From the IMG/VR virus record IMGVR_UViG_3300032225_002272: a stretch of 20,000 nt of DNA; one strand, written 5' to 3'. The stretch is from an uncultured virus (IMG/VR IMGVR_UViG_3300032225_002272) (taxonomy: Duplodnaviria > Heunggongvirae > Uroviricota > Caudoviricetes). Shown piece after piece: positions 2,522-16,127 of the stretch. The stretch's first letter is position 1. Each line of letters starts with the position of its first letter. Under the pieces are notes generated by a model that saw only the letters and a program-made list of their open reading frames with translations, was not told the origin of the DNA and made no database searches. The position numbers were made by a program, and so were the translations under genes.

Positions 2522-2905
2522 ATGGAACAAAAGAAAAGACCTGATAGCTTTGTAGAAAACAGATTATCTAAGAGATATCCAACGGAAATTGGCGCACCAA
2601 AATTTGAACCTGATAATATTTCTCTTTTTAAAATTGAAAAAACTTCTAAAATAAAAAAATACTATTCTTCAAGATTTGAAGAGATGACTAAAGAGTATGA
2701 AAAGTTAATGTCAGAAATTCAAATGAATGAAAGACTTTATACGGCTTCACACAACTTTGAACCAATCTCTGGCGAAACTTACCACTTATATAAAAAGGAA
2801 TCCGGTCAAGAATTTCTTTCTTTAATATCTCCGGAACAATGGGCAAAATTTGATTTCATCGGATCTTATAGATTCTTATCAGACGGTAGATGGGAGGCTA
2901 TTTAA
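2522..2905 (+). CDS. DUF2452-like protein
   Basis: YPTEIGAPKFEP...FEPISGETYHLY...FLSLISPEQW resembles Bacteroidota DUF2452 proteins (recognised by eye). Confidence 0.6.
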   Translation: MEQKKRPDSFVENRLSKRYPTEIGAPKFEPDNISLFKIEKTSKIKKYYSSRFEEMTKEYEKLMSEIQMNERLYTASHNFEPISGETYHLYKKESGQEFLSLISPEQWAKFDFIGSYRFLSDGRWEAI

Positions 2906-4506: not shown

Positions 4507-4524
4507 AATGTTTATATTTTTTAG

Positions 4525-4596
4525 TTGTCTCGCCAGGATTCGAACCTGGACTCTTTCCGTTCAAAGCGGCTTGTGTTGCCCTTACACCACGAGACA
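4525..4596 (-). tRNA. tRNA-Gln(UUG), weak anticodon stem
   Basis: TGTCTCG/CGAGACA acceptor (U1-A72), loop CTTTGAA, T-arm CCAGG TTCGAAT CCTGG. Confidence 0.85.
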
Positions 4597-4602
4597 TTGT
4601 TG

Positions 4603-4674
4603 TTGCTCCACTTGGACTCGAACCAAGCTCATCTGTTTCAAAGACAGATATGATCACCCATATACTATGGAGCA
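4603..4674 (-). tRNA. tRNA-Gln(UUG)
   Basis: TGCTCCA/TGGAGCA acceptor, TCTGT CTTTGAA ACAGA anticodon arm, CTTGG TTCGAGT CCAAG T-arm. Confidence 0.88.
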
Positions 4675-4676
4675 AT

Positions 4677-4710
4677 AAAAAACCCGAATCAATTAGATTG
4701 ATTCGGGTTT
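4677..4710 (-). terminator. Intrinsic terminator (attenuator) of the Gln leader
   Basis: AAACCCGAATCAAT-CTA-ATTGATTCGGG-TTTTTT, ending 2 nt before tRNA-Gln. Confidence 0.9.
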
Positions 4711-4738
4711 GTAAAGTTTAGACAATACGATACCATTA

Positions 4739-4789
4739 TCAATCTGTTGGATTAATTTGTTGTTGTTGGTATTGTGATGTTGTTCTCAT
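4739..4789 (-). CDS. Putative Gln-sensing leader peptide MRTTSQYQQQQINPTD
   Basis: 16 codons with five CAA; AATATATA motif 9 nt upstream; AGATTGAT across its stop is complementary to ATCAATCT in the terminator 5' arm and loop. Confidence 0.85.
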   Translation of the reverse strand: MRTTSQYQQQQINPTD

Positions 4790-4817
4790 AGTTCTATTTA
4801 TATATTTTGTTTCCTTG

Positions 4818-4895
4818 TCGAGATGGCAGGATTCGAACCTGCGAAATTCTCCTGCTCCCAAAGCAGGCGGGGTGACCTGGCTCCCCAACATCTCG
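4818..4895 (-). tRNA. tRNA-Pro(UGG)
   Basis: CGAGATG/CATCTCG acceptor, A73, CCTGC TTTGGGA GCAGG, GCAGG TTCGAAT CCTGC. Confidence 0.9.
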
Positions 4896-4904
4896 TTATT
4901 TTAG

Positions 4905-4977
4905 CGGTCCATACCGGATTCGAACCGGTACCACACACCGTGACAGGGTGGTATTGTAACCATTCAACCAATGGACC
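4905..4977 (-). tRNA. tRNA-Asp(GUC)
   Basis: GGTCCAT/ATGGACC acceptor, G73, CACC CTGTCAC GGTG, ACCGG TTCGAAT CCGGT. Confidence 0.9.
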
Positions 4978-5039
4978 ATTTTGAGAATTCTTTTACTCTA
5001 TTCTCTAAAGAGTATCTTTCGCTCCAAAGCTACTTTTTG

Positions 5040-5113
5040 TCGGGAAGGTCGGAATCGAACCGACTAACTGAAGCCTCCAGAGCCCCCGTGCTTAAAACCT
5101 TAGTCACTTCCCG
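5040..5113 (-). tRNA. Atypical tRNA-Pro(UGG)-like (C33, poor D stem)
   Basis: CGGGAAG/CTTCCCG acceptor with A73 (Pro-like), GGGGC TCTGGAG GCTTC anticodon arm, GTCGG TTCGATT CCGAC T-arm. Confidence 0.6.
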
Positions 5114-5128
5114 GTTTTAATATAAAAC

Positions 5129-5161
5129 AAAAAACCCAGTTAATCTTTCGACTAACTGGGT
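5129..5161 (-). terminator. Intrinsic terminator (attenuator) upstream of the Pro/Asp/Pro tRNAs
   Basis: ACCCAGTTAGTC-GAAA-GATTAACTGGGT followed by TTTTTGTTTT. Confidence 0.9.
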
Positions 5162-5185
5162 AATGTTTCATAGTTAATATTTTCT

Positions 5186-5284
5186 TTAACTTAAAACCAC
5201 ATAGTTAGCCTCTTTCGAACCAGGATCCTGATCGATTACAACTTGCGGTTGCGGGTTAACGATATTTAAGTTTAAGTTTTTCAT
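5186..5284 (-). CDS. Putative leader peptide MKNLNLNIVNPQPQVVIDQDPGSKEANYVVLS (Pro/Gln/Asp-sensing)
   Basis: 32 codons; 8 of codons 11-21 are Pro, Gln or Asp; GGCTAACT (5203-5210) can pair with AGTTAGTC of the terminator 5' arm; AATATATA 5 nt upstream. Confidence 0.75.
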   Translation of the reverse strand: MKNLNLNIVNPQPQVVIDQDPGSKEANYVVLS

Positions 5285-5289
5285 TTCTT

Positions 5290-5434
5290 TATATATTAAA
5301 AAGTTTTTCTTCCTTTTGTTCTTATTTTATACAAATATACAACAAAGTTTTAATTTGTCAAATATTTTTTTAATTTATTTTATTTTTTCTCTTTTGTGAC
5401 TACAAAGATATGTAGTTTATTTTAGATTGCCAAA
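5290..5434 (-). promoter_or_regulatory. Tandem Bacteroidota-type promoters plus AATATATA motif for tRNA array 1
   Basis: TTTG(5431-5434)-N20-TATCTTTG(5403-5410); TTTG(5359-5362)-N19-TATATTTG(5332-5339); AATATATA(5290-5297). Confidence 0.7.
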
Positions 5435-5796
5435 TTTTCTTTTGATTTATAATCTAAAATTTCAATGTTAAAAGCCGATGATAGTTTATGACCTAATTCA
5501 TCAACTATAGCAAATATTTCTTTTTCATTATAAACAGTAATATTAAAGTGGACAACAGCATCTATTTCAACAGCACCATCTGCTAATTCAGCAACAGTTC
5601 CTTCTTCAAGAATGTTAACTTCAATAGATTCAGGGTTATAAACCAACTCACTAACTTTAGATAATCCTAAGTTTATTTTATCTTCTGTGATGTCTTCACC
5701 TTTACATAGAATATCTATGTTATAAGATTCTTTTGGGGCAGAATATCTGAATCCTACGGTTCTTTGATATTCATTTATTGATTTTAAATGCTTCAT
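5422..5796 (-). CDS. Hypothetical protein with MKHLKSINE N-terminal motif
   Basis: 124-aa ORF preceded by AATATATA. Confidence 0.75.
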   Translation of the reverse strand: MKHLKSINEYQRTVGFRYSAPKESYNIDILCKGEDITEDKINLGLSKVSELVYNPESIEVNILEEGTVAELADGAVEIDAVVHFNITVYNEKEIFAIVDELGHKLSSAFNIEILDYKSKENLAI

Positions 5797-5821
5797 ATAT
5801 TATATATTAATTTTTACAAAC

Positions 5822-5850
5822 AAAAAAACCCTCAGATAAATCTAAGGGTT
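5822..5850 (-). terminator. Intrinsic terminator after the cold-shock gene
   Basis: AACCCTTAGA-TTTA-TCTGAGGGTT followed by a T run. Confidence 0.8.
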
Positions 5851-5872
5851 AATTAATTAGTGTTAAAATATA

Positions 5873-6064
5873 TTAAGCGTTAACTGATACGTTAACTGCG
5901 TTTAATCCTTTTTTACCTTCTGTTACTTCAAAGCTAACTGAATCTTTTTCTTTAATCTCATCAATTAATCCTGTAGCGTGTACAAACACGTCTGTTCCGT
6001 TTTCGTCTGTGATGAAACCAAATCCTTTAGCTTCATTGTAGAACTTTACTGTTCCTGTTTTCAT
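5873..6064 (-). CDS. cspA: Cold-shock protein (CspA family)
   Basis: GTVKFYNEAKGFGFI (RNP1), DVFVHATGL (RNP2), GKKGLNAVNV. Confidence 0.95.
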   Translation of the reverse strand: MKTGTVKFYNEAKGFGFITDENGTDVFVHATGLIDEIKEKDSVSFEVTEGKKGLNAVNVSVNA

Positions 6065-6126
6065 TTTTTATTCTTGTTTATTTTTAATTTGGTATTCTTA
6101 CCAGTTGTTATATTTTTTATTTGTAT

Positions 6127-6546
6127 TTAGTTTATACCTAAATCATTTAATATTTTATCTCTTATTTTAGAAGGATTGTGAATAGCATAAACCGAATTTC
6201 TTGTGATTAGAATATCTTCATCAATTATTTTATTAACAGTTGAAGTATACCAATTTCCTATACCATAGGATTCACCTATCTTCGGTTCTTTATTTTGTAT
6301 TCCTTTTAATGTATCAGATGGCTTATCAAATCTAGAAAATCTATCAGGTCGGTTATTTGGTGTACCAACAATAGACTTATCAGTTTTTAAATATTTATAT
6401 TCATCACCACATTTTTCTTTTAGAATGTTGATATAGTGATCAAAAATAGGCCCACCATTATAAACAACCATAATAGTGAATTCTCTACCGCCTTTTATAT
6501 CAGGTAGAATAGTTCCTATCTTTAATATTTCAACTTCTTTATTCAA
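6127..6546 (-). CDS. Hypothetical protein
   Basis: 139-aa ORF overlapping the upstream stop; ends IRDKILNDLGIN. Confidence 0.7.
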   Translation of the reverse strand: MNKEVEILKIGTILPDIKGGREFTIMVVYNGGPIFDHYINILKEKCGDEYKYLKTDKSIVGTPNNRPDRFSRFDKPSDTLKGIQNKEPKIGESYGIGNWYTSTVNKIIDEDILITRNSVYAIHNPSKIRDKILNDLGIN

Positions 6547-6784
6547 TTATTTTATTTATTTTTTTATTTCTTATGAATGACTTAACCCAATGTTCTGGTA
6601 TCTCAAGATATCCAAGTTCAGATTTATTTGGTTCAGAAAATTCTGTTTTATAAAATCCTTCAGTTAAATGTATGTTTGTTATATTAGGAATACCATCAAC
6701 AGTTTTACAATTCTTTTTCAAAAGAAAAGAGTTTATGGCTTCAATTACATCTTGTGATAAGTATCTTCCTTCTATATCTCTCAT
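6539..6784 (-). CDS. Hypothetical protein (start revised to MRDIEGRY)
   Basis: ATG at 6784 immediately follows the peptidase stop; ends IRNKKINKIIE. Confidence 0.65.
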   Translation of the reverse strand: MRDIEGRYLSQDVIEAINSFLLKKNCKTVDGIPNITNIHLTEGFYKTEFSEPNKSELGYLEIPEHWVKSFIRNKKINKIIE

Positions 6785-6785
6785 A

Positions 6786-8042
6786 TTAGTCAAAATCAGA
6801 TAAATCTGAAGCGTAGCCTCTGTATAAATCTTCGCCTTTTGTTTTTTCCAGTTCTCTTTGATAATCAACTGTGTTAAAGTAGTTGTCTAAATCATCACTA
6901 CCTAAATCATCACCTTTTGAGTAATCTAACTCTGGCAAGTATTCTAATAAGTCGTTACGGTTACACTCAGTTGTGTGGTCACCAGCATCTTGTTTGTAGA
7001 ATACATTTAACTTAAATCCATCCCAAGTAAAATCATTGTATTGTAAGTCTAATGAGACTAATAAATCATTAATCATCATTTTTTCATAAGCAATGCGTTC
7101 TTTACATAAGTCAACTGATACAACTTTCTTAGTTAAAGAATCAATCTCTACATTAGAAACGTAGTTGTATTTTTTATCGTGAAACCAAACTTTATCAGTT
7201 TTAGCTTCTGGTTTTTTCCAACTGTTAATTCTTGAGCTTGATGAATAGCCGTAGTAATCATCCCAAGCATCCCAACCATATCCACCGTAACCTCCGTATG
7301 ATTTGTATTCAGTTTTAGAAGGGTCTCTATCTACTGGTAATCCATTCCAATCAACTAACAAACAAGCCTCAGCTAATTTAGTTAAGTGTTCAATATCTTG
7401 TTGTTCAGTAAATGTGTGTTCTGAACGATAACCTACAGAAATATTAGTACACTCAGAGTAGATTTTAATAAATTGAACAGAGTCAGTTAAGATGCCTGTT
7501 GGGTCATTTTTGTATGAGAATGTATCATCAGCCAAGTTTAATTGTTTTGATAAAGCCTCACCAAAAACATCTGAACAACATCTTTGTGAAGATTGGAAAG
7601 TAATAACTGAATCAGTGCCTCTACGGTCAAATGAAATTACTTTATTGATACCTTCAATCTTTTGGTCTTTTTGTACATTAGCAACTTTTCTTGAACCAAC
7701 ACAACCAACTTCTTCACCTAAGAAAAAGTAGTAAAGTCCAGGGATTTTATTTTCAATCATATAAAGCATAATTGTAACACCTGCTTTATCGTCAGCACCT
7801 AAAATAGATTTACCATCAGTCTTAATTATGTTACCATCAAAAACGTGAGTAACAGCAGTAAGTGCTGATGTTGCAGTATCTAAGTGCGATGTAAACATCA
7901 CATCACTCTCTCCAATTTTAATGAAAAGGTTACCAAATTCGTCTTTCTGTAATTCTGGATTCAACAAAGGGAAAACATCTTCCTCAGTACCGTGAGGATA
8001 TGTTCTACTTGTTAACTCAAGAAATTTCTCTTTTATGTTCAT
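6786..8042 (-). CDS. M28/M20-family zinc peptidase-like protein (start revised to MNIKEKF)
   Basis: Metal-binding motifs SHLDT, LGADDKAG, GEEVGCVGS, ISFDRRG, TD, NISVGY..EH; promoter TTTG(8108-8111)-N20-TATATTTG(8080-8087) upstream. Confidence 0.85.
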   Translation of the reverse strand: MNIKEKFLELTSRTYPHGTEEDVFPLLNPELQKDEFGNLFIKIGESDVMFTSHLDTATSALTAVTHVFDGNIIKTDGKSILGADDKAGVTIMLYMIENKIPGLYYFFLGEEVGCVGSRKVANVQKDQKIEGINKVISFDRRGTDSVITFQSSQRCCSDVFGEALSKQLNLADDTFSYKNDPTGILTDSVQFIKIYSECTNISVGYRSEHTFTEQQDIEHLTKLAEACLLVDWNGLPVDRDPSKTEYKSYGGYGGYGWDAWDDYYGYSSSSRINSWKKPEAKTDKVWFHDKKYNYVSNVEIDSLTKKVVSVDLCKERIAYEKMMINDLLVSLDLQYNDFTWDGFKLNVFYKQDAGDHTTECNRNDLLEYLPELDYSKGDDLGSDDLDNYFNTVDYQRELEKTKGEDLYRGYASDLSDFD

Positions 8043-8163
8043 CGCTATAAGTTTATAGTGTTTTTTCTTCTTCTTCATACAAATATACAAAAGTTATTAA
8101 CATTATCCAAATTAATTGAAATTTAATTTAATAATCTGGAATTGTTTTTTTAATATATAAATC

Positions 8164-10446
8164 ATGCAACAAATAGTTTCAAGTTTAGAAAATGGCACAG
8201 TTAATCTTTCTGATAAGTTTGATATAAATGTCGGTGCATACTCAGTTGATGCGACTCCATATTTTAACTCAATCGGTAGCGAATATACAATAAGTTTTCT
8301 TAATTTACAAGATGTTAGTCAATTAACTACATTTAAGTATGATACTTTAGGTATGACTGATACTAGATTTTTGAAAAACTATTATCGAATCTCAAGAGAT
8401 AATGTTGCTTGGACAGAATGGTATGACCTTAAAAGAGCTATTGATAACTTTCCAACAATTGATTCTAAAGATCCTCTTTATTTAGATGTTAAATGGGTAA
8501 GAGCAGGTTCATCAGCTGTTGGTGCTATTCGTCTTTTAGAATATTCAATTGGTGGTAAAGTTGAAAGAAACTTAGTTGAAACAGCCGGTGATGGTGTAAG
8601 TACTGTTAATTTAGTACCAGGTGAAACATCTATTTGGAAAGCTCCTTTTATTTATAAGGTATTTAGTGTGACCGATATAGAAATTATATCAGCTGGTGAT
8701 CTTACGGGTGTTGATATTAAATATAGATTTTCTCAAGATAATTCTAGAACTTGGTCTAATTGGGAACCATTCACAAAAGAAAATATAACAACAGTTAGAA
8801 TTAACCCTGTTAGATTTTTTCAAATTGAATATTCAATAACAAACAATTCCCAATCAAATAAAAGTGTTCAAGATATTAATATAATAGGAGATTTTCAAAA
8901 TGTTAGTAAAGATTACTTCAAAACTAACTTATATGGTATCAGAGAATGTTGTCAATCTAACTTAGTTGGTTATGTTGATCCAAGTGGTAATTTTGTACCT
9001 GCTGATAATACAAATGGTTCAGGTACAGGTGCTGGCGGTGGTATATCTGGTTCGGGTGGTTCTTGTGATACAACTGGTAATGGTTCAACTTTACCAGAAT
9101 TAAATTCTCAAGATAAGGCTAATTTGTTTAATCCTTATAAACAAAATACAGCTATGGACTTATTGAATAAACTAAGTGCAGATGCTGAACAAATGTTTGG
9201 TCATAGAGTTATTTACTTTGTTACTGATCCGGATAAGAAAGGTCAAGATCATACAATGCATGAATATCAATTATATAATGTTGTTTGTGAAGGTAATATT
9301 AAAGTAGCGGTTGATGGTAATAATTTTCCAGATTCTCAGATAGTAATGAATCAATTTGATTTAAGTCTTTTTGAAGCAATGACCGTTCACATCACAAAGA
9401 AACAGTTTAAGGAAATATTTGGTCCGCAAAGAAGACCATCAAAAGAAGATTTTTTATATTTCTGTGATGTTAATAGAATGTTCCAAGTGGACCATGCTCA
9501 ACAGTTCAGGAACTTTAACAACTCAGCTATCTACTATAAATTGGTTCTTAAAAAATACAGTCAAAAAGCCAATGTCAAAGCTGGTACTCAAGAGATTCAA
9601 AATAAGCTTACACAGCTTACTAAGAACTCCACCATTGATGAATTATTTGGTATTGAGAATAATCAGGATAAAGCTTCAATTGCTAATAAACAACAGTTTA
9701 CTCCTTTAACCAAAGATCCAATTAGATTGGAATATAAAGCTACTATTGATAAAGAATTGATTGAAAACTCATCAACTATTATCAGTAAGGCACATTATGA
9801 TTTATCAACTGTTGACTATCAACAAGTTGCTGTTAAATATAAAAACTTCGATCCAGTTCTATCAGTATCTGATAACATTGGATATATGCTTTGGTTTAAT
9901 ATCAATAACTACATTACAGATGAAGTTTATAACTTTATGAACTATTATGATGCTAATACTAATTTAGGTTGGAAAGTTAATTTAAGCAATGATGCTATTC
10001 AAGTTATATTAAATTCAGATACTTATAATTTTGATTTAATGGGTTCACCTTCTACCGATAACATAGCTCTTGAAGAAGACACTTGGTATTGTTATGTTCT
10101 CAACATTAATCAAAGACAAAGAAATATGCAACAATATATTTATAAGAGAAATGTAGATGATGAAACAGATGCTGCTAATTTAAGTTCAACAATTCTTAGA
10201 AAAGTTTATAATAATTCTCAAAGTATTAAACCAATTGCTTATCAAATTGAAGGTGATGCAACTTGTGAAATACTTGCTTCTGATATGAAAGTAACTAATA
10301 TTAGAATGTTTACAGATGTTATACCTGCTGACCAACATAATAAAATATTGAATCAGTATGTTATTCGAGACGATTCCAAATATCTGGTGTTTGCAGATAA
10401 TGCCACTACTCGTCTCTACCTCCCTCGTTTTCCGCTATTCGAATAA
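8164..10446 (+). CDS. Putative virion structural protein: T4 gp14-like neck/head-closure domain with N-terminal beta domains and a C-terminal LamG-like domain
   Basis: AEQMFGHRVIYF...RRPSKEDFLYF..NRMFQV resembles gp14-type neck proteins; Gly-rich linker; C-terminal WF..DTWYCYVLN..NIRMF LamG-like pattern; AATATATA upstream. Confidence 0.55.
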   Translation: MQQIVSSLENGTVNLSDKFDINVGAYSVDATPYFNSIGSEYTISFLNLQDVSQLTTFKYDTLGMTDTRFLKNYYRISRDNVAWTEWYDLKRAIDNFPTIDSKDPLYLDVKWVRAGSSAVGAIRLLEYSIGGKVERNLVETAGDGVSTVNLVPGETSIWKAPFIYKVFSVTDIEIISAGDLTGVDIKYRFSQDNSRTWSNWEPFTKENITTVRINPVRFFQIEYSITNNSQSNKSVQDINIIGDFQNVSKDYFKTNLYGIRECCQSNLVGYVDPSGNFVPADNTNGSGTGAGGGISGSGGSCDTTGNGSTLPELNSQDKANLFNPYKQNTAMDLLNKLSADAEQMFGHRVIYFVTDPDKKGQDHTMHEYQLYNVVCEGNIKVAVDGNNFPDSQIVMNQFDLSLFEAMTVHITKKQFKEIFGPQRRPSKEDFLYFCDVNRMFQVDHAQQFRNFNNSAIYYKLVLKKYSQKANVKAGTQEIQNKLTQLTKNSTIDELFGIENNQDKASIANKQQFTPLTKDPIRLEYKATIDKELIENSSTIISKAHYDLSTVDYQQVAVKYKNFDPVLSVSDNIGYMLWFNINNYITDEVYNFMNYYDANTNLGWKVNLSNDAIQVILNSDTYNFDLMGSPSTDNIALEEDTWYCYVLNINQRQRNMQQYIYKRNVDDETDAANLSSTILRKVYNNSQSIKPIAYQIEGDATCEILASDMKVTNIRMFTDVIPADQHNKILNQYVIRDDSKYLVFADNATTRLYLPRFPLFE

Positions 10447-10560
10447 ACTTGGATAATTCAACAAGGTAAGTATAAATATTTTAATGTTATAAATGTGTGT
10501 AATGGTAAAAGAAAATCTCACAAGGGATATAAATGGATATATAAATCAAAATTTGAATAA
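10447..10560 (+). pseudogene. NUMOD1-like remnant of a homing endonuclease
   Basis: ATG-less frame TWIIQQGKYKYFNVINVCNGKRKSHKGYKWIYKSKFE*; CxGKRKxxxGYKWxY is NUMOD1-like. Confidence 0.55.
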
Positions 10561-10563
10561 AAT

Positions 10564-10598
10564 AAAAAAAGCCTCTGATTTTAGAGGCTTTCTTTTTT
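10564..10598. terminator. Bidirectional intrinsic terminator between convergent genes
   Basis: A7-GCCTCT-GATTTT-AGAGGC-TTTCTTTTTT. Confidence 0.8.
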
Positions 10599-12222
10599 AT
10601 AGAGTATTTTGAATTCTTATCATTGTTTCATCCTTACCAAGGATTTCCATTGTTGATACCAAGTCTGGACCTGGCATACCACCTGTAATAGCAACTCTTA
10701 AAGCCGGCATTACTTTACCCATCTTAACACCCATTTCTTGACAAAGGTCGTGAATAGTTTGTTTAATAGTTTCAGCATTCCAATCAATTGATTTAGTTAT
10801 GAATGAACTAAATACTTTTTTATAATCATCAGTTAATAACTTAACATCAGCTTCTTTAATCACAATTGGCTTAAAGAATATATCAGCAACAACTTGTAAA
10901 TCTTTTGTAAAGACTGCTCTCTTTTTACAGATGTCAACAATCTTAGAAATATTTTCCGGTGAATACTGATATTGGTCACCCATATCAATATGTGAAAGAA
11001 TTTCTTCATCACTTCTGTAAGTGTTCAAATGTTGAGCATTAAAGTGTTTAGCTTTTTCAACATCAAAACGAGCACCAGCTTTATGAACATGTGATAAGTC
11101 AAACTTAGAAATCATATCAGCCATTGTCATTACTTCGGTAGTATCAGTTGGAGACCAACCTAAAAGAACTAAGAAGTTCAACATAGCTTGTGGTTCAAAA
11201 CCTTCATCTTTGAAACCAAGATACTTAACAGTATTTCCTTTATCATCTTCACCTTCACCACCCATCGGGAAAGCAGGAATACCCATAGAAAGAGCTTTAC
11301 GTTTAGACAACTTGCCTTTACCATCTGGATTTAGAATCAATGGTAAGTGAGCAAAAGTAGGAGCAGTCCAACCAAATGCTTCATATAACATTAAATGAAG
11401 CGGAGTTGAAGGCAACCATTCTTCACCACGAATAACGTGAGTTGTTCCCATATCATGGTCGTCACAAACATTAGCCATATGATATGTTGGAATACCATTT
11501 GATTTAACTAAAACTTTATCATCAGTTTGATTTGTGTTCAAACTAACTTCGCCACGAATTACATCAGTAACAGTGATTGTTCTATTTTCTGGTGTTTTGA
11601 AACGAATTACAAATGGAGTTTTATTAGCAAGTAAAGCATCAACTTCTTCTTCAGATAAAGAAAGTGAGTTCCTCATTGACATACGAGTTTTAGTATCGTA
11701 AGCAAAGTGAGCATTTTCGGTTCTTACTTTAGCCATATCTTCTTCTGTATCAAAAGCATAGTAAGCCATACCTTTATCTAAAAGAGTTTGAATATGACCA
11801 GAATAATCTCTTTCTGATTGACGGTAAGGACCATTAGGACCACCTTTCCAAGGCGCATAATCTGGTTCGATACCACACCATTCTAAAGAGTCTTGGATGT
11901 ACTTTTCAGCATCCCCAACAAAGCGTTTTTGGTCAGTATCTTCAATGCGAACATAAAATATACCATCGTGTTTTTTAGCAAACAGATAGTTGTAAAGGGC
12001 AGTACGAACTCCACCGATATGTAAAAATCCTGTTGGTGAAGGAGCAAAACGAGTTACTACTTTACCTTTCGGTGTAATAGAATCTAAAGCATCTAAACTT
12101 TTTTGAACATCAGGAGATTGACCATCATCATTTGTAGCAAGTGTATGAAGAGCGTTGTCTTTCATTTCACCTTTTGATTCAGTAAGAAATTTATCTCTAT
12201 TTTTAATGTATTTCATGTCCAT
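10597..12222 (-). CDS. gltX: Glutamyl-tRNA synthetase with an N-terminal extension of about 50 aa (start 12222 or 12216)
   Basis: VVTRFAPSPTGFLHIGGVRTALYN (HIGH), RIEDTDQ, PYRQSER, THVIRGEEW, KLSKRK, LRVAITG..GPDL. Confidence 0.95.
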   Translation of the reverse strand: MDMKYIKNRDKFLTESKGEMKDNALHTLATNDDGQSPDVQKSLDALDSITPKGKVVTRFAPSPTGFLHIGGVRTALYNYLFAKKHDGIFYVRIEDTDQKRFVGDAEKYIQDSLEWCGIEPDYAPWKGGPNGPYRQSERDYSGHIQTLLDKGMAYYAFDTEEDMAKVRTENAHFAYDTKTRMSMRNSLSLSEEEVDALLANKTPFVIRFKTPENRTITVTDVIRGEVSLNTNQTDDKVLVKSNGIPTYHMANVCDDHDMGTTHVIRGEEWLPSTPLHLMLYEAFGWTAPTFAHLPLILNPDGKGKLSKRKALSMGIPAFPMGGEGEDDKGNTVKYLGFKDEGFEPQAMLNFLVLLGWSPTDTTEVMTMADMISKFDLSHVHKAGARFDVEKAKHFNAQHLNTYRSDEEILSHIDMGDQYQYSPENISKIVDICKKRAVFTKDLQVVADIFFKPIVIKEADVKLLTDDYKKVFSSFITKSIDWNAETIKQTIHDLCQEMGVKMGKVMPALRVAITGGMPGPDLVSTMEILGKDETMIRIQNTL

Positions 12223-12240
12223 ATATATTATTTTTAAAAA

Positions 12241-12378
12241 TTAATCTTTGATTATCAATCCAATTATAAAATACCAAAGTAAGGCCCATCCACTATAGAA
12301 GAACCAGATTACAAAAAATAATCTAAACCAAAAACGGTCAATACCGGTTTTATTTTGTAGTCTTGTACAAGTACTCAT
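12241..12378 (-). CDS. Small membrane protein, PspC-domain-like (45 aa)
   Basis: MSTCTRLQNKTGIDRFWFRLFFVIWFFYSGWALLWYFIIGLIIKD; GID...RLxFV......G..LLxY.I pattern; promoter TTTG(12426-12429)-N20-TAAATTTG(12398-12405). Confidence 0.55.
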   Translation of the reverse strand: MSTCTRLQNKTGIDRFWFRLFFVIWFFYSGWALLWYFIIGLIIKD

Positions 12379-12439
12379 ATTTATCTTAATTAGATTACAA
12401 ATTTAAGAAAAAGAATTCTAATAAACAAATATATACTTT

Positions 12440-13018
12440 ATGAAATACTTAAAAAGATTTAACGAAGATATTGAGGCTACTATTAAAGCCAATAGTAATA
12501 TAAGTGCCAATATCGATACTAAATTTAATGATATCAATACTATCTATGATAAAAGATGGGAAAGTGAATTATCTGAGTATTTTACAATTAACTATCACGG
12601 TAAATTATACAAGTTCAAGAAAGATAACATAATGTTACATTCTGATATGGTTCAGATAACTTATGCTTCTACACCATTAAATAGTAATCAGGAAGGTGAA
12701 ATATGGGGCGTTCCAGACACTTTAGAGTTTGATGTTTACTTTGCTAAAGACGATCAAACTGATAAAATAAGAATGACTATTGATATTACTTATGGTGATT
12801 TAGTAGCTTGTGAATTTACAGTTGAACCACCTAATAAAGTAAAAGTGGTAGAATATACATCCTACCACTCTAAATTTGATCCTAGCAATACTGTGTTTGC
12901 TTTAGTAGATGACTCTCTACAATCCTTCATAAACTTCCTCAATAGATTTGAAGGAATGAAACTTAAAAAAGAGGATTTTAAGTTTTTGGATCAATATGAC
13001 AATTACTTGCCTAACTAA
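12440..13018 (+). CDS. Hypothetical protein with MKYLKRFNE N-terminal motif
   Basis: 192-aa ORF, AATATATA just upstream. Confidence 0.75.
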   Translation: MKYLKRFNEDIEATIKANSNISANIDTKFNDINTIYDKRWESELSEYFTINYHGKLYKFKKDNIMLHSDMVQITYASTPLNSNQEGEIWGVPDTLEFDVYFAKDDQTDKIRMTIDITYGDLVACEFTVEPPNKVKVVEYTSYHSKFDPSNTVFALVDDSLQSFINFLNRFEGMKLKKEDFKFLDQYDNYLPN

Positions 13019-13325
13019 TTTTAATAAATTCGGATTTATCAATTGATTTACCAATCCATCTATTTAGGAAAGATGCTTTGATCTCGTTATCAAATCTGGT
13101 TGTTCCTAAATCAGAAGATAATACTATTGTATTAACTTCATACATAGATAGACCACTTTCATCGTCATTAAATGTTGGTCCTTCTTCTACCGTTTCAATT
13201 GGAAACTGATAAATAGAATTTTCAATTTTTACATTGTAATATAAATTACCATGTGAGTAATGACTAAAATAAGCCATTAATTCTTTGTTTTTGAATAAGT
13301 ATTTTGTTACTTCATTCTTTTCCAT
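13011..13325 (-). CDS. Hypothetical protein at the end of the tRNA array
   Basis: 104-aa ORF starting about 24 nt after the last tRNA. Confidence 0.7.
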   Translation of the reverse strand: MEKNEVTKYLFKNKELMAYFSHYSHGNLYYNVKIENSIYQFPIETVEEGPTFNDDESGLSMYEVNTIVLSSDLGTTRFDNEIKASFLNRWIGKSIDKSEFIKIS

Positions 13326-13348
13326 AATTATGATTTTATTTTATCGAG

Positions 13349-13429
13349 TATCAGAAGAGAGACTTGAACTCTCATACCGTTAGGTGCTGGCTTTTGAGAC
13401 CAGTGTGTATACCATTCCACCATTCTGAC
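13349..13429 (-). tRNA. tRNA-Leu(CAA)
   Basis: GTCAGAA/TTCTGAT acceptor, CTGGT CTCAAAA GCCAG, long variable arm, A73. Confidence 0.9.
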
Positions 13430-13434
13430 ATTTG

Positions 13435-13506
13435 TAGCGATACCAGGAATCGAACCTGGTCCTCAAGGATATGAGCCGAGTGAGCTTGCCGTTACACCAT
13501 ATCGCC
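13435..13506 (-). tRNA. tRNA-Met(CAU) (or Ile2), weak anticodon stem
   Basis: GGCGATA/TATCGCT acceptor, loop CTCATAT, CCAGG TTCGATT CCTGG. Confidence 0.75.
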
Positions 13507-13511
13507 ATTTG

Positions 13512-13572
13512 TACCCAAAGAGAGACTCGAACTCTCACTCCTTTCAGAACTTGCTTCTTACACCATCTGGGC
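13512..13572 (-). pseudogene. Internally deleted tRNA-Leu
   Basis: Acceptor GCCCAGA/TTTGGGT, Leu-type variable arm and T-arm intact; D-loop and 5' anticodon stem missing (61 nt total). Confidence 0.7.
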
Positions 13573-13579
13573 ATTGTTG

Positions 13580-13666
13580 TAGCGGGGGCAGGATTCGAAC
13601 CTGACGTGTCACTTGCGCAACCCTGGGTTATGAGCCCAGTGAGTTTGACCTCTACTCTACCCCGCG
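13580..13666 (-). tRNA. Initiator tRNA-fMet(CAU) with a long variable arm
   Basis: C1:U72 mismatch, CTGGG CTCATAA CCCAG (three G-C pairs), variable hairpin GTTGC GCAA GTGAC. Confidence 0.85.
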
Positions 13667-13673
13667 ATGTTTG

Positions 13674-13745
13674 TGTCGATACCTGGAATCGAACCAAGTC
13701 CTCAGGAACATGTCCCCCTGCACCCTACCAATAGGCTATATCGAA
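13674..13745 (-). tRNA. Degenerate tRNA-Met-like, 8-nt anticodon loop
   Basis: TCGATA/TATCGA acceptor similar to 13435-13506; CAGGG GGACATGT TCCTG; normal T-arm. Confidence 0.55.
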
Positions 13746-13751
13746 GTTTAG

Positions 13752-13836
13752 TACCTGGAGAGGGACTCGAACCCTCACGGGCATTTCTGCCCACTGGATT
13801 TTAAGTCCAGCGTGTCTACCATTCCACCACCCAGGC
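13752..13836 (-). tRNA. tRNA-Leu(UAA)
   Basis: GCCTGGG/TCCAGGT acceptor, CTGGA CTTAAAA TCCAG, long variable arm. Confidence 0.92.
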
Positions 13837-13852
13837 AGGTGATTTTATTTTG

Positions 13853-13936
13853 AGCCGATGGAGGGACTCGAACCCCCGTTGGACTATTCGTCTCTGGTTT
13901 ACAAAACCAGTGCTGTCGCCACTGAGCCACATCGGC
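13853..13936 (-). tRNA. tRNA-Thr(UGU) with a long variable arm
   Basis: GCCGATG/CATCGGC acceptor, CTGGT TTTGTAA ACCAG, variable region AGACGAATAGTCCAAC. Confidence 0.85.
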
Positions 13937-13955
13937 ATATAATGGAGGAAAGTCT

Positions 13956-14042
13956 AAAGAGTGATTTTACTGAAGGACTTGAACCTTCAAAAGTTTGTTT
14001 TTAAGACAAATGTGTATACCATTTCACGAAGTAACACTCTTA
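13956..14042 (-). ncRNA. tRNA-Leu(UAA)-like element with an extended, closed acceptor stem
   Basis: D-arm GTG AAATGGTATA CAC, TTTGT CTTAAAA ACAAA, GAAGG TTCAAGT CCTTC; acceptor TTACT/AGTAA continued by AAGAGTG/CACTCTT. Confidence 0.55.
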
Positions 14043-14061
14043 ATCACCATCCATTATTTTG

Positions 14062-14133
14062 TTGTCCTGGTCGGTAACGATCCGACTACCTCTTCCATGT
14101 CACAGAAGCGCTCTCCCATTGAGCTACAGAACA
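14062..14133 (-). tRNA. tRNA-Val(GAC)
   Basis: TGTTCTG/CAGGACA acceptor, CTTCT GTGACAT GGAAG, T-loop ATCGTTA. Confidence 0.85.
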
Positions 14134-14139
14134 ATTTAG

Positions 14140-14211
14140 AGCTTCTTACCGGTAACGATCCGATTTCTCTAGTTTACAAGACTAGCGCATCACCATTAAT
14201 GCTTAAGAAGC
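14140..14211 (-). tRNA. tRNA-Thr(UGU)
   Basis: GCTTCTT/AAGAAGC acceptor, CTAGT CTTGTAA ACTAG, T-loop ATCGTTA. Confidence 0.87.
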
Positions 14212-14216
14212 GTTTG

Positions 14217-14299
14217 AGGTACTGACTGGGTTCGAACCAGTGTGACAGATTTTGCAGATCTGTGCCTCTCGTCTTTCGACACCACTCGGCCACAGTACC
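14217..14299 (-). tRNA. tRNA-Cys(GCA) with an extra hairpin in the D-loop
   Basis: GGTACTG/CAGTACC acceptor, U73, CAGAT CTGCAAA ATCTG; D-loop contains GTC GAAA GAC. Confidence 0.85.
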
Positions 14300-14309
14300 A
14301 TATGTTTTG

Positions 14310-14383
14310 TTGGACTGGTCGGTTACGATCCGACCACCTCCACGGTATCAGCGTGGCGCTCTGACCAAATGAGCTACAGTCCA
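14310..14383 (-). tRNA. tRNA-Ile(GAU)
   Basis: TGGACTG/CAGTCCA acceptor, CCACG CTGATAC CGTGG, T-loop ATCGTAA. Confidence 0.88.
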
Positions 14384-14391
14384 ATTTTTTG

Positions 14392-14464
14392 TAGTCCCGG
14401 TCGGTTACGATCCGACTCCCTCCACTATGTAACAGTGGCGCTCCCCCGATTGAGCTACAGGACT
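14392..14464 (-). tRNA. tRNA-Val(UAC)
   Basis: AGTCCTG/CGGGACT acceptor, CCACT GTTACAT AGTGG, T-loop ATCGTAA. Confidence 0.85.
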
Positions 14465-14478
14465 ATTCTAAACATTTG

Positions 14479-14553
14479 CTCCCCGTAGTGGATTTGAACC
14501 ACTGACCCTTCGCTTAACAGGCGAACGCTCTAGAACCGCTGAGCTAACGAGGA
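14479..14553 (-). tRNA. tRNA-Asn(GUU)
   Basis: TCCTCGT/ACGGGGA acceptor, G73, TTCGC CTGTTAA GCGAA. Confidence 0.92.
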
Positions 14554-14566
14554 ATTTATAATTTTG

Positions 14567-14649
14567 TACCGAAGGTGGGACTCGAACCCACACACCCTTT
14601 CGGGTACCAACTTCTAAGGCTGGCGTGTCTACCATTCCACCACTTCGGC
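14567..14649 (-). tRNA. tRNA-Leu(UAG)
   Basis: GCCGAAG/CTTCGGT acceptor, CCAGC CTTAGAA GTTGG, long variable arm. Confidence 0.92.
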
Positions 14650-15459
14650 ATTTATTTTTCTTTTATAACAATTTTTATAAAATTCTGGATCGATTTCTTT
14701 TAATAGTTTATTTACATTTTTAACTTTTAATATCTCAGATGCTAGTTTAACCCATCCAATCTTTTTAAAATCTATACTACTACTTTTTAATTTATTTAAT
14801 CTTTCACTATAACTATCCAGTTTATTAATTTTTCTTTTATTCCAGTACTCTTCCCTATTCTTATATTTTTTTTCTTTCTTATTTTTTATATAAAATGGTA
14901 TATCGATTTTATTATTATTTTTAATATTTTCTAAAATAGAATCACACATTTCTAAATTATAAACAATTGAGTAGTGTACTTCATATATCGACCATCCTTT
15001 ATTTTTTATAAAACTATTTCTTTCACTATAGTAATCTTTAAGTTCTCCATTAGATTTATAATGTTGATTACCATTAATTTCTACAACCGAAGTGAACTCA
15101 GGTATTAAAATATCAACCGAATAGAATCTTTCTTTTGAAATCATAACCTCTTCCAAAAAGAAAATATTTCTACTTTTTAAGAATTTCTTAAACTCCTCAC
15201 AAGGCTTAGATTTATTTCCGTTTCTCCAAGGATGTTTAGATGTATTTTCTTTCAACCATTTTTTTCTACCTTCTGATATTAACTTTTTTGTTTCTCTTTT
15301 TACTTCATATTTTTTTAATTTCCAATTTTCTTTATTCAATAAACCTTTTTTTACAAAAGTTCTTAATTTTTTAATTGATATACTATACTTAATTAGTATA
15401 TCTTTTTGATAAAAAAGACCACTTTCAAAGTCTTTTTGAATATTTTCAAAGTCTAACAT
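14629..15459 (-). CDS. DUF559/Vsr-like PD-(D/E)xK endonuclease, probable free-standing homing endonuclease
   Basis: SKPCEEF..L...FYSVDIL....VVEINGNQHY...ERNSFIKNKGWSIYEV; NUMOD3-like ETKKLISEGRK; lies inside the tRNA array. Confidence 0.75.
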   Translation of the reverse strand: MLDFENIQKDFESGLFYQKDILIKYSISIKKLRTFVKKGLLNKENWKLKKYEVKRETKKLISEGRKKWLKENTSKHPWRNGNKSKPCEEFKKFLKSRNIFFLEEVMISKERFYSVDILIPEFTSVVEINGNQHYKSNGELKDYYSERNSFIKNKGWSIYEVHYSIVYNLEMCDSILENIKNNNKIDIPFYIKNKKEKKYKNREEYWNKRKINKLDSYSERLNKLKSSSIDFKKIGWVKLASEILKVKNVNKLLKEIDPEFYKNCYKRKINAEVVEW

Positions 15460-15512
15460 AATACAAACCTACATTTTACTTATATATTAATAAGACCAGT
15501 GTCCCTTTTTTG

Positions 15513-15591
15513 TACCCCAGGTAGGATTCGAACCTACATTTTCAGTTCCGTTACGATTAGTCGCTTAGAAGGCGACCTCGGCTACTGAGGC
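15513..15591 (-). tRNA. Atypical tRNA-Arg(UCU) lacking a D-arm, with a 22-nt variable region
   Basis: GCCTCAG/CTGGGGT acceptor, only TAGCCGAG before GTCGC CTTCTAA GCGAC, GTAGG TTCGAAT CCTAC T-arm. Confidence 0.7.
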
Positions 15592-15597
15592 GTTTTG

Positions 15598-15669
15598 CTC
15601 ACTGGGGGAATTACGATATCCCGACCTAACGGTTAACAGCCGTTTGCTCTGCCTCTGAGCTACCAGTGA
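15598..15669 (-). tRNA. tRNA-Asn(GUU)
   Basis: TCACTGG/CCAGTGA acceptor, G73, AACGG CTGTTAA CCGTT, T-loop ATCGTAA. Confidence 0.87.
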
Positions 15670-15675
15670 ATTTTG

Positions 15676-15760
15676 TCGGTAGGGTGGGATTTGAACCCAC
15701 GTTGTGATTTCTCACCTAGTGTATCAGACTAGTCCCTGAAGACCGCTCGGGTACCTACCG
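15676..15760 (-). tRNA. tRNA-Ile(GAU) with a class II-like long variable arm
   Basis: CGGTAGG/CCTACCG acceptor, A73, CTAGT CTGATAC ACTAG, variable hairpin GTGA GAAA TCAC. Confidence 0.82.
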
Positions 15761-15775
15761 TTATTTTTTGAACAT

Positions 15776-15808
15776 AAAAAAACCCTCAGATTTTGTGTCT
15801 GAGGGTTT
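15776..15808 (-). terminator. Intrinsic terminator (attenuator) upstream of the 18-element tRNA array
   Basis: AAACCCTCAGA-CACAAAA-TCTGAGGG-TTTTTTT, 15 nt before the first tRNA. Confidence 0.9.
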
Positions 15809-15838
15809 CGATTATCCTTTATTAAAATTTGTTACATA

Positions 15839-15949
15839 TTAACTAACAAATCGTTTAGATATGACGAAGCCCTCAGAGCGTCTAATACATAACGTATTAT
15901 TCACCACTGTCAGTGTATTCATGTTCATATTTAAATTCATTGTTTTCAT
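15839..15949 (-). CDS. Putative multi-amino-acid leader peptide MKTMNLNMNMNTLTVVNNTLCIRRSEGFVISKRFVS
   Basis: 36 codons; 23 of the first 24 residues are M/T/N/L/V/C/I/R, the specificities of the downstream tRNAs; TCTGAGGGCTTCG (15865-15877) pairs 12/13 with CGAAACCCTCAGA of the terminator 5' arm. Confidence 0.85.
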   Translation of the reverse strand: MKTMNLNMNMNTLTVVNNTLCIRRSEGFVISKRFVS

Positions 15950-15954
15950 TGTTG

Positions 15955-16127
15955 TATATATTAAAAAGTTTTTGTCCCTTTTGACTTATTTTATACAAAT
16001 ATAGATAAAAGTTTTAAGTTTGCCTAATTTTTTTCTAAAAATTTGTAAAACAATTGAAAGTTGTATCTAAATCGTTGCCTCTCTCAATTGTTATACAAAC
16101 ATAAGGAGATATTTTCATATCACCAAA
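15955..16127 (-). promoter_or_regulatory. Tandem Bacteroidota-type promoters plus AATATATA motif for tRNA array 2
   Basis: TTTG(16124-16127)-N20-TATGTTTG(16096-16103); TATATTTG(15996-16003); AATATATA(15955-15962); 15955-16034 closely resembles 5290-5370. Confidence 0.7.

Follow-up and report, generated by a model that had tools for sequence, protein, structure and literature searches.

Leader-peptide attenuators are well known from the enterobacterial trp, his, leu, thr, ilvGMEDA and pheA operons, where they switch kinetically and may sense several amino acids at once (Thr and Ile in thr; Ile, Leu and Val in ilv). In the pheST operon of Escherichia coli, the pheM leader peptide senses charged transfer RNA (tRNA) and controls a synthetase operon. 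T-boxes also switch between terminator and antiterminator ahead of translation-related genes, and do so by binding uncharged tRNA directly, without an open reading frame (ORF). The purpose and timing of phage tRNAs are debated, with codon-usage compensation, replacement of degraded host tRNAs and escape from anticodon nucleases under discussion. Here we analyzed a stretch of 20,000 nucleotides (nt) with about 30% GC (the window) from an uncultured virus of the Caudoviricetes (IMG/VR record IMGVR_UViG_3300032225_002272). Three units on its minus strand consist of a short ORF, a strong intrinsic terminator and a cassette of tRNA genes. Judged from sequence, these units and their counterparts in related phages are likely to be ribosome-mediated leader-peptide transcription attenuators of phage tRNA genes, one for each cassette.

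The units resemble the attenuators of amino-acid operons in their short ORF with a cluster of sensed codons, their 1:2, 2:3 and 3:4 pairings, the terminator ahead of the genes and their multivalent leaders. They differ in that the cargo is tRNA genes instead of biosynthetic enzymes, in that they belong to a phage, and in that seven paralogous units cover all amino-acid classes. Because the cargo is tRNA, the product would act directly on decoding and not on amino-acid supply. The device appears closest in spirit to the pheST-type control of synthetases. In both cases a gene of the translation apparatus stands under a leader peptide, and the Gln unit of the window leads into a gene for a glutaminyl-tRNA synthetase (GlnRS)-like protein. 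Unlike in pheST, the tRNAs come first here and form the main cargo. With T-boxes the units share the sensing of the state of a specific tRNA and a terminator/antiterminator switch, but the sensor here would be the translating ribosome. No T-box match was found in the window by Rfam at E ≤ 1 across its whole length, and the known leader families in Rfam remained below their gathering scores (trpB motif RF04312, 32.8 bits vs 59; His_leader RF00514, 23.9 vs 49; Phe_leader RF01859, 22.5 vs 55). In the portions of the literature available to our search, attenuation controlling tRNA genes was described neither for phages nor for cells. It was likewise absent from the available portion of PMC2965389, and the main text of the huge-phage survey PMC7162821 does not contain 'attenuat', 'leader peptide' or 'terminator'. 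Under this interpretation, a familiar type of switch is put to a new use. Whether a Phe-rich leader precedes tRNA-Phe genes in E. coli was checked for pheV and not borne out: K-12 pheV has no Phe-rich leader or terminator upstream, and an excerpt of PMC7049720 gives pheU and pheV as monocistronic with 3-4-nt leaders.

The sequence-only reading of the window had claimed that motif, short ORF, terminator and tRNA genes follow one another three times on the minus strand, and this layout is indeed present (Table 1). The three ORFs have 16, 32 and 36 codons, and their ATG lies 5-9 nt past a AATATATA motif (5, 5 and 9 nt). A spacer of 24-30 nt separates each ORF from a perfect hairpin of 11-14 base pairs (bp) with a U tail, and a tRNA or tRNA-like gene begins 2-15 nt past the terminator. 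The three unit terminators, with folding free energies (dG) of -15 to -18 kcal/mol, rank first to third among the 21 terminator-like sites of the window; shuffled sequences gave 7.8 +/- 2.8 sites. ARAGORN called 19 tRNAs in the window, all on the minus strand, and Rfam added two tRNAs (14299-14217, 15591-15513) and a weak tRNA-like match (5113-5037).

For comparison, the nearest IMG/VR relative used (G001, 476,236 bp) was taken as a whole genome, together with the tRNA regions of five further IMG/VR contigs (G002-G006) and of the closest GenBank phages, the uncultured phage genomes LR745206.1 (634,780 bp) and LR756502.1 (642,428 bp). The latter two share about 79% identity with the window over 11% and 4% of its length, respectively. 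The tRNA regions were scanned for terminators and then for ORFs ahead of them, which gave a set of 33 leaders from nine genomes after a near-identical duplicate (L046) was dropped. Orthologues of leader 2 were found in G001, G005, G006 and LR745206.1, and those of leader 3 in G001, G003, G005, LR745206.1, LR756502.1 and further contigs.

The 33 leaders fall into seven families, Q; P/D(/Q); S/R; E/Y; G/A(/I); H/F/K/W; and N/L/M/T/V/I/C/R, and the leaders correspond to the cassettes behind them. The leader MKTIMLTSKSSSSRSSKPSEVRSYS is followed by tRNAs for Arg(ACG), Ser(UGA) twice, Ser(GCU) and Ser(GGA). Leaders beginning with MTTITNIAYYYEGERSS, MKNLTNISTAIIGGGAGANV and MRTNNTHKHFSKSNKWFSNQF precede, respectively, Glu and Tyr tRNAs, Gly and Ala tRNAs, and a cassette of Phe, His, Phe, Trp, Trp and four Lys tRNAs; MRTTTQYQQQQQINPTD precedes three Gln tRNAs. 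In the window, the P/Q/D leader is followed by Pro and Asp tRNAs, with Gln in the next unit, and the N/L/M/T/V/I/C/R leader by the large array (Ile, Asn, Leu, Val, Thr, Met and others). The match was scored by counting the leader residues for which the cassette carries a tRNA of the same amino acid, and the true assignment was compared with all leader-cassette permutations in every genome with at least three leaders (six genomes). The true pairing was the unique maximum in G001 (1/5040), G005 (1/720), LR745206.1 (1/120), LR756502.1 (1/120), the window (1/6) and G003 (1/6); these are not six independent tests because the genomes are related, and G001 alone gives 2e-4. The outcome was unchanged when only default-threshold tRNAs were counted, and at the codon level with wobble rules. 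With several cassette-specific leaders in one genome, their mutual specificity acts as a statistical control within the data. Leader composition thus tracks tRNA content across related huge phages, which was the check proposed with the sequence-only reading. The same reading had described each leader of the window as enriched in the amino acids of its own cassette. Against the composition of long ORFs in G001, this held for the Gln leader (5 of 15 residues, P = 5.5e-5) and for leader 3 (22 of 35, P = 1.8e-3) and was not significant for the Pro/Asp leader taken alone.

The match extends to the choice of codons. In the long ORFs of G001, 80% of the Arg codons are AGA and 15% CGN. Eight of the nine Arg codons in Ser/Arg leaders ahead of tRNA-Arg(ACG) are CGN, whereas all eight in leaders ahead of tRNA-Arg(UCU/CCU) are AGA. 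Where the cassette holds only tRNA-Ile(UAU), ATA accounts for 11 of 15 Ile codons in the leader vs 33% in the background. TCG, which has a background of 3%, is frequent in the Ser leaders; tRNA-Ser(UGA) would read it by wobble.

Leaders also follow rearrangements of the cassettes. G005 splits the large array in two, and its leaders are split accordingly. The tRNA-Arg(UCU) and four Leu tRNAs lie behind a leader beginning with MKTTNLNINLTLNVLCLRQR, which has six Leu and three AGA codons, and the Asn/Ile/Val/Cys/Thr cassette lies behind MKTNTVNINVITITNCVNSTTSGNEICMV, which has no Leu, two Cys and 22 of 28 residues matching its own tRNAs. In the same genome, a single leader beginning with MTTITNITIAIEAIGGYEAGYTI (including ITIAIEAIGGYEAGYTI) stands ahead of the combined Tyr/Glu and Ile(UAU)/Gly/Ala cassettes. 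Its Gln tRNAs lie behind the P/Q/D leader, and a separate Gln leader is absent.

The reading frame of the leaders is conserved. Within the ORFs, 15 of 18 gap runs are multiples of three, vs 4 of 12 past the stop codon. Each of the 34 distinct strong terminators in the tRNA regions scanned has an ORF of 16-38 amino acids (aa) ahead of it, with 16-33 nt between the end of the ORF and the stem. The whole genome of G001 contains 60 strong perfect-stem terminators; seven precede tRNAs, and each of these has a 17-35-aa ORF ahead, while only two of the other 53 have a 15-45-aa ORF ahead. These two sites (245868 and 274134) were rejected as leaders, one being a small acidic protein gene with an ordinary terminator and the other lying in an antisense coding region.

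Covariation was found both in the terminators and in the antiterminators. Compensatory changes occur in 4 of 12 terminator pairs of the unit 3 family (seven orthologues) and in 3 of 13 of the unit 2 family (five sequences). A strand embedded in the 3' part of the ORF can pair with the terminator 5' arm and co-varies with it in four families. Such a strand, downstream of the regulatory codons, is present in the N/L/M/T/V, H/F/K/W and P/Q/D families and in part of the G/A and E/Y families. The antiterminator duplex of ORF 3 (-14.3 kcal/mol) was matched by 1 of 200 shuffles and that of ORF 2 (-10.0 kcal/mol) by 8 of 200; across the whole set, no more than 1 of 200 shuffles did as well for 11 leaders, and no more than 10 of 200 for 16 of the 33. 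Cognate arms pair better, at -10.06 vs -7.54 kcal/mol for swapped arms, and none of 20000 random assignments reached the observed sum. The clearest case is ORF 3, whose antiterminator and terminator arm change together in G003, L186 and G005c. In the window, TCTGAGGG (codons R-S-E-G-F) pairs with the arm CCCTCAGA; in G003 and L186, GTTCGGG (codons G-S-G-C and C-S-G-I) pairs with CCCGAAC. The pairing is kept and the peptide is different, and three positions are therefore altered on both strands.

Folding of both conformations, which had also been proposed, yielded the alternative structures for all three window leaders. The free RNAs fold with the codon cluster paired to the antiterminator strand (1:2) and with the terminator (3:4), and when the terminator 3' arm is withheld, the antiterminator (2:3) forms. 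In the pre-terminator fold of the Gln leader, AGAUUGAU pairs with AUCAAUCU; for leader 2, the predicted conserved 1:2 partner is GTTAAC. RNAalifold on whole leaders returned only the terminator in the unit 3 family, and the terminator plus an invariant 1:2 helix in the unit 2 family. A long-range helix between the NTLCIR codons and the stop region, hinted at by the sub-threshold trpB alignment, was discarded, as its partner is not conserved in the unit 3 alignment. The position of the ribosome was then scanned in an equilibrium model in which the ribosome is a block of 28 nt, an assumed footprint. In this model the terminator has the least advantage with the A site on the own-codon cluster and the greatest with the antiterminator strand covered. 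With the ribosome on an own codon, the terminator is weaker than in free RNA in all 33 leaders, and weaker than with the ribosome at the stop codon in 31 of them. Permissive positions, where a stalled ribosome weakens the terminator most, hold 170 of 382 own codons vs 132 of 531 others (Fisher P = 7e-10).

The permutation match, the rearranged leaders, the conserved frame and the covariation of the antiterminator support the attenuation proposed in the sequence-only reading. We infer that the ORFs are translated and that the switch runs from stalling to read-through, a direction that rests on the anatomy and on equilibrium folding. A transcript, started at a promoter or reading through from the cassette upstream, would open with an ORF of 16-38 codons whose middle is a cluster of codons for the tRNAs encoded right downstream. 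When decoding is fast, the ribosome would stand over or past the embedded strand, the terminator would form 16-33 nt after the stop codon, and transcription would end 2-19 nt short of the first tRNA. When matching charged tRNAs are scarce, the ribosome would stall on the cluster and break the 1:2 pairing; the freed strand would pair with the terminator 5' arm, and RNA polymerase would continue into the tRNA genes. In the Gln unit of the window, read-through would also reach the GlnRS gene. The new tRNAs would lift the stall, which would amount to a codon-resolved negative feedback on tRNA supply. The shortage might be caused by starvation or by host anticodon nucleases, the triggers suggested in the sequence-only reading.

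More tentatively, and short of an even chance in our estimate, the whole set may act as a modular, codon-resolved homeostat of tRNA supply. About seven paralogous attenuators would then serve all amino-acid classes, each switching only the cassette whose codons are decoded slowly (with the synthetase in the case of Gln). Output would be matched to the demand of the host and the stage of infection, and host tRNAs degraded in the course of infection or cut by tRNA-targeting defences would be replaced, as an inducible counter-defence. If the attenuation is real, a switch driven by decoding speed at the very codons served by the downstream tRNAs would provide direct evidence of a limiting tRNA supply that is monitored in infection, and the question could be tested codon by codon. 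Classical attenuation would also reach a new cargo, self-regulated stable RNA genes, as far as our literature search shows. The leaders would further offer short, orthogonal 'codon-speed sensors' of natural origin, which cover most amino acids and could be used as reporters of tRNA availability.

Several observations weigh against attenuation as described here. The Pro/Asp leader has its own amino acids at 5 of 31 residues (P = 0.19), and every leader has an N-terminus rich in N, T, I and L, whatever the cassette. Orthologues are not independent samples, and the cassette boundaries presuppose co-transcription across inserted ORFs. A leader is missing from some tRNAs, namely five in G001 (Cys, Met, Leu, Arg, Met), the Tyr-Asp-Asp-Pro group of G006, and all seven in the part of G004 that was covered, which have neither leader nor terminator and which, tRNA-Met apart, stand singly between ORFs. 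The antiterminator duplex is indistinguishable from shuffles in 17 of 33 leaders, among them every S/R leader and all but one of the four Gln leaders; for the Gln and Ser/Arg families, 10-73 of 200 shuffles reach the observed duplex energy, and in ORF 1 of the window the duplex is weak (-6.7 kcal/mol) and borderline (10 of 200). The 1:2 pairing is a prediction and lacks covariation because its pairs are invariant. The terminator is favoured at equilibrium in most modelled states, and antitermination would therefore have to be kinetic. For the two longest families of leaders, 25-38 nt separate the antiterminator strand from the stop codon; a ribosome that has reached the stop would therefore leave the strand uncovered, and termination would need the 1:2 helix to re-form behind the ribosome.

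Part of these observations would also suit a real, conserved leader and terminator that follow another logic, such as a constitutive partial terminator that keeps tRNA transcription at a fixed low level, a switch of opposite sign, coupling of ribosome and RNA polymerase, or an RNA or peptide acting in trans, as the terminated RNA and peptide reportedly do in the case of rnTrpL and peTrpL. The dominance of the terminator in nearly all modelled states and the weak antiterminators of the Gln and Ser/Arg families speak for this explanation, which we nevertheless regard as unlikely. It leaves unexplained why each cluster matches its own cassette at the level of codons, and why the own codons lie at positions where a stalled ribosome weakens the terminator most, the placement supported by the Fisher test above. 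Nor could a translating ribosome melt the terminator itself, because the stop codon lies 16-33 nt before the stem.

A further explanation is coincidence, in which the ORFs would be untranslated, the hairpins ordinary terminators, insulators or 5' processing structures of tRNA precursors, and the match a product of chance or a by-product of RNA structure (for example, a GC-rich strand read as Gly/Ala). Short ORFs are common in AT-rich DNA, no Shine-Dalgarno sequence is visible, and the Gly/Ala cluster is GC-rich in a genome of 30% GC. Such a coincidence is nevertheless barely credible, as no other of the 5040, 720, 120 and 120 permutations equals the true pairing, the frame is preserved across insertions and deletions, the matches are codon-specific and include the rare CGN and TCG, and the leaders track the splits and merges of cassettes. 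The match is just as good for the AT-rich clusters (Gln CAA, Asn, Lys, Tyr) as for the GC-rich cluster. It is similarly very improbable that the attenuators were captured from amino-acid biosynthesis or synthetase operons of a host and stand ahead of tRNAs incidentally. The weak, sub-threshold Rfam likeness to leader families and the position of the Gln unit before GlnRS would fit a capture, but no known leader family reaches its gathering score, and the groupings E+Y, G+A+I, H+F+K+W, S+R and P+D+Q fit the tRNAs of the cassettes and not biosynthetic pathways. Moreover, the leaders share one N-terminal pattern, upstream motif and terminator style, suggesting duplication within the phage lineage.

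A TAnnTTTG box, which we take to be the Bacteroidota -7 consensus, lies upstream of 22 of the 33 leaders, and 24 of the 33 carry a AATATATA-like motif no more than 25 nt from the ATG. In the window, units 2 and 3 have a strong promoter-like site about 55 nt upstream. The site of leader 2 belongs to the top two sigma-70-like matches of the window and is accompanied by a TAnnTTTG box at -55, and the site of leader 3 overlaps a TAnnTTTG box 54 nt upstream of the ATG. The motif AAAAGGNA..AAACTTTTTAATATATA also precedes internal leaders that have no TAnnTTTG box. The motif could thus act as an independent promoter, which would make the leader mRNAs nearly leaderless, or it may be a context for translation initiation. 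At G001:231074, L036/L136 and L154, the same motif leads directly into a tRNA-Met(CAU) 9-22 nt on, without ORF or terminator. These tRNAs, behind the shared promoter or motif and without a leader, serve as an internal control; the lack of a leader is as expected if they are initiator tRNAs, a provisional identity. The shared motif is also seen ahead of tRNA-Met in G004 (L158; a 171,766-bp contig), and this contig shows the arrangement as it looks without the device.

Viral contigs were also scanned by motif. The scan with AACTTTTTAATATATA returned 122 loci, only 13 of which have tRNAs; the remaining loci look like chance matches in AT-rich DNA. A second scan, with AATACNTTATGTATTAGA, returned 27 loci, 13 with leader and terminator. 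Three had a family-like ORF without terminator or a spurious ORF, 11 lacked an in-frame ATG, and one match was an unrelated long ORF. The two scans reach contigs of 281-597 kb.

Table 1. Features of the three tRNA units in the window.
Feature	Position	Strand	Description
Unit 1 motif AATATATA	4806-4799	-	Ahead of leader ORF 1
Leader ORF 1 MRTTSQYQQQQINPTD	4789-4739	-	16 codons + stop; five CAA codons at 4774-4757
Candidate antiterminator strand 1	4744-4731	-	Over the stop codon of ORF 1
Intrinsic terminator 1 and U tail	4710-4680 (unit end 4677)	-	14 bp stem, dG -17.5
Cassette 1	2902..4674	-	Two tRNA-Gln(UUG), then GlnRS-like gene
tRNA-Gln(UUG), first	4674-4602	-	2 nt past U tail
tRNA-Gln(UUG), second	4596-4524	-
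Promoter-like site, leader 2	5334..5361	-	TTGACA-16-TATATT, 11/12 sigma-70-like match
Leader ORF 2 MKNLNLNIVNPQPQVVIDQDPGSKEANYVVLS	5284-5186	-	32 codons + stop; Pro/Gln/Asp codon cluster 5254-5222
Antiterminator strand in ORF 2, AGGCTAACTATGTGGTT	5195..5211	-	Pairs with terminator 5' arm ACCCAGTTAGTC
Intrinsic terminator 2 and U tail	5129..5161 (stem 5161-5134)	-	12 bp stem, dG -18.0
Cassette 2	4817..5113	-	tRNA-like gene, tRNA-Asp, tRNA-Pro
Non-canonical tRNA-like gene	5113-5039	-	15 nt past terminator 2
tRNA-Asp(GUC)	4977-4904	-
tRNA-Pro(UGG)	4895-4817	-
Promoter-like site, leader 3	15996..16026	-	TAGGCA-17-TATATT
Conserved motif AACTTTTTAATATATA	15955..15970	-	Ends 5 nt before leader-3 ATG
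Leader ORF 3 MKTMNLNMNMNTLTVVNNTLCIRRSEGFVISKRFVS	15949-15839	-	36 codons + stop; N/L/M/T/V/I/C/R codon cluster 15943-15884
Antiterminator strand in ORF 3, CTCTGAGGGC	15869..15878	-	Pairs with terminator 5' arm CCCTCAGA
Intrinsic terminator 3 and U tail	15776..15809 (stem 15809-15779)	-	11-12 bp stem, dG -15.3
Cassette 3	13348..15760	-	tRNA-Ile(GAU), tRNA-Asn(GUU), third tRNA, 276-aa ORF, 17 tRNAs

Leader ORF 1 is without a promoter of its own and begins 27 nt past tRNA-Pro, so the Gln unit would be an internal attenuator in the same transcript. Its leader has a possible 8-bp AU-rich pairing that takes in the terminator loop. The synthetase gene of cassette 1 (2902-4506, minus strand; identified by Pfam) begins 18 nt past the second tRNA-Gln and encodes a 534-aa class-I synthetase of the Glu/Gln type with Gln-type C-terminal domains. 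A 553-aa ORF occupies the equivalent position in G001. Ahead of the GlnRS start (window 4506), a similar motif, AAAATATAAA, is seen 7 nt upstream.

The tRNA-like gene that opens cassette 2 was called tRNA-Pro(UGG) by relaxed ARAGORN only, and Rfam gave only a weak match to the transfer-messenger RNA (tmRNA) clan. In several relatives, the first gene past the terminator is likewise a non-canonical tRNA-like RNA.

In cassette 3, tRNA-Ile begins 15 nt past the terminator. The 17 tRNAs of the array include Leu, Asn, Val, Ile, one read as Cys(GCA), Thr, Val, Leu, Thr, Leu, one with an 8-nt anticodon loop (13745-13673, minus strand), Met, Met and Leu. ARAGORN called no tRNA-Cys or tRNA-Arg in the window. 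Two genes that Rfam matched as tRNAs were read directly from the sequence: 15591-15513, with the anticodon loop CTTCTAA, as UCU (Arg), and 14299-14216, with the loop CTGCAAA, as GCA (Cys). The former, in its Arg(UCU) reading, has a long variable arm, and the latter an expanded D region. Together with 5113-5039 and 13745-13673, these odd tRNAs were missed or mis-called by default tools. The tRNAs for Ile at 15675-15760 (86 nt), Thr at 13852-13936 (85 nt) and Met at 13581-13665 (85 nt) have lengths typical of tRNAs with a long variable arm, and each has a twin of normal length in the array.

The third tRNA of cassette 3 is separated from the 17-tRNA array by the 276-aa ORF (15459-14629, minus strand), which has no Pfam match. 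The same place holds a gap of 1027 nt in G001 and of only about 110 nt in the close relative L046. Because of this short gap in L046, the ORF looks like an insertion and is possibly a mobile gene.

A gene identified by Pfam as glutamyl-tRNA synthetase (GluRS)-like (10597-12222, minus strand) ends at a bidirectional terminator (10564-10595) that it has in common with a convergent 760-aa ORF (8164-10446), and no leader-like ORF was seen ahead of this gene. A terminator in the style of the leaders, AACCCTTAGA...TCTGAGGGTT with a U tail (5827-5850, minus strand), lies past a 63-aa ORF (5873-6064) and ahead of a 124-aa ORF, and probably just marks the end of an operon. Between the tRNA cassettes lies an ORF of 434 aa (6786-8090, minus strand) that matches Peptidase_M28 weakly (E = 2.6e-6).

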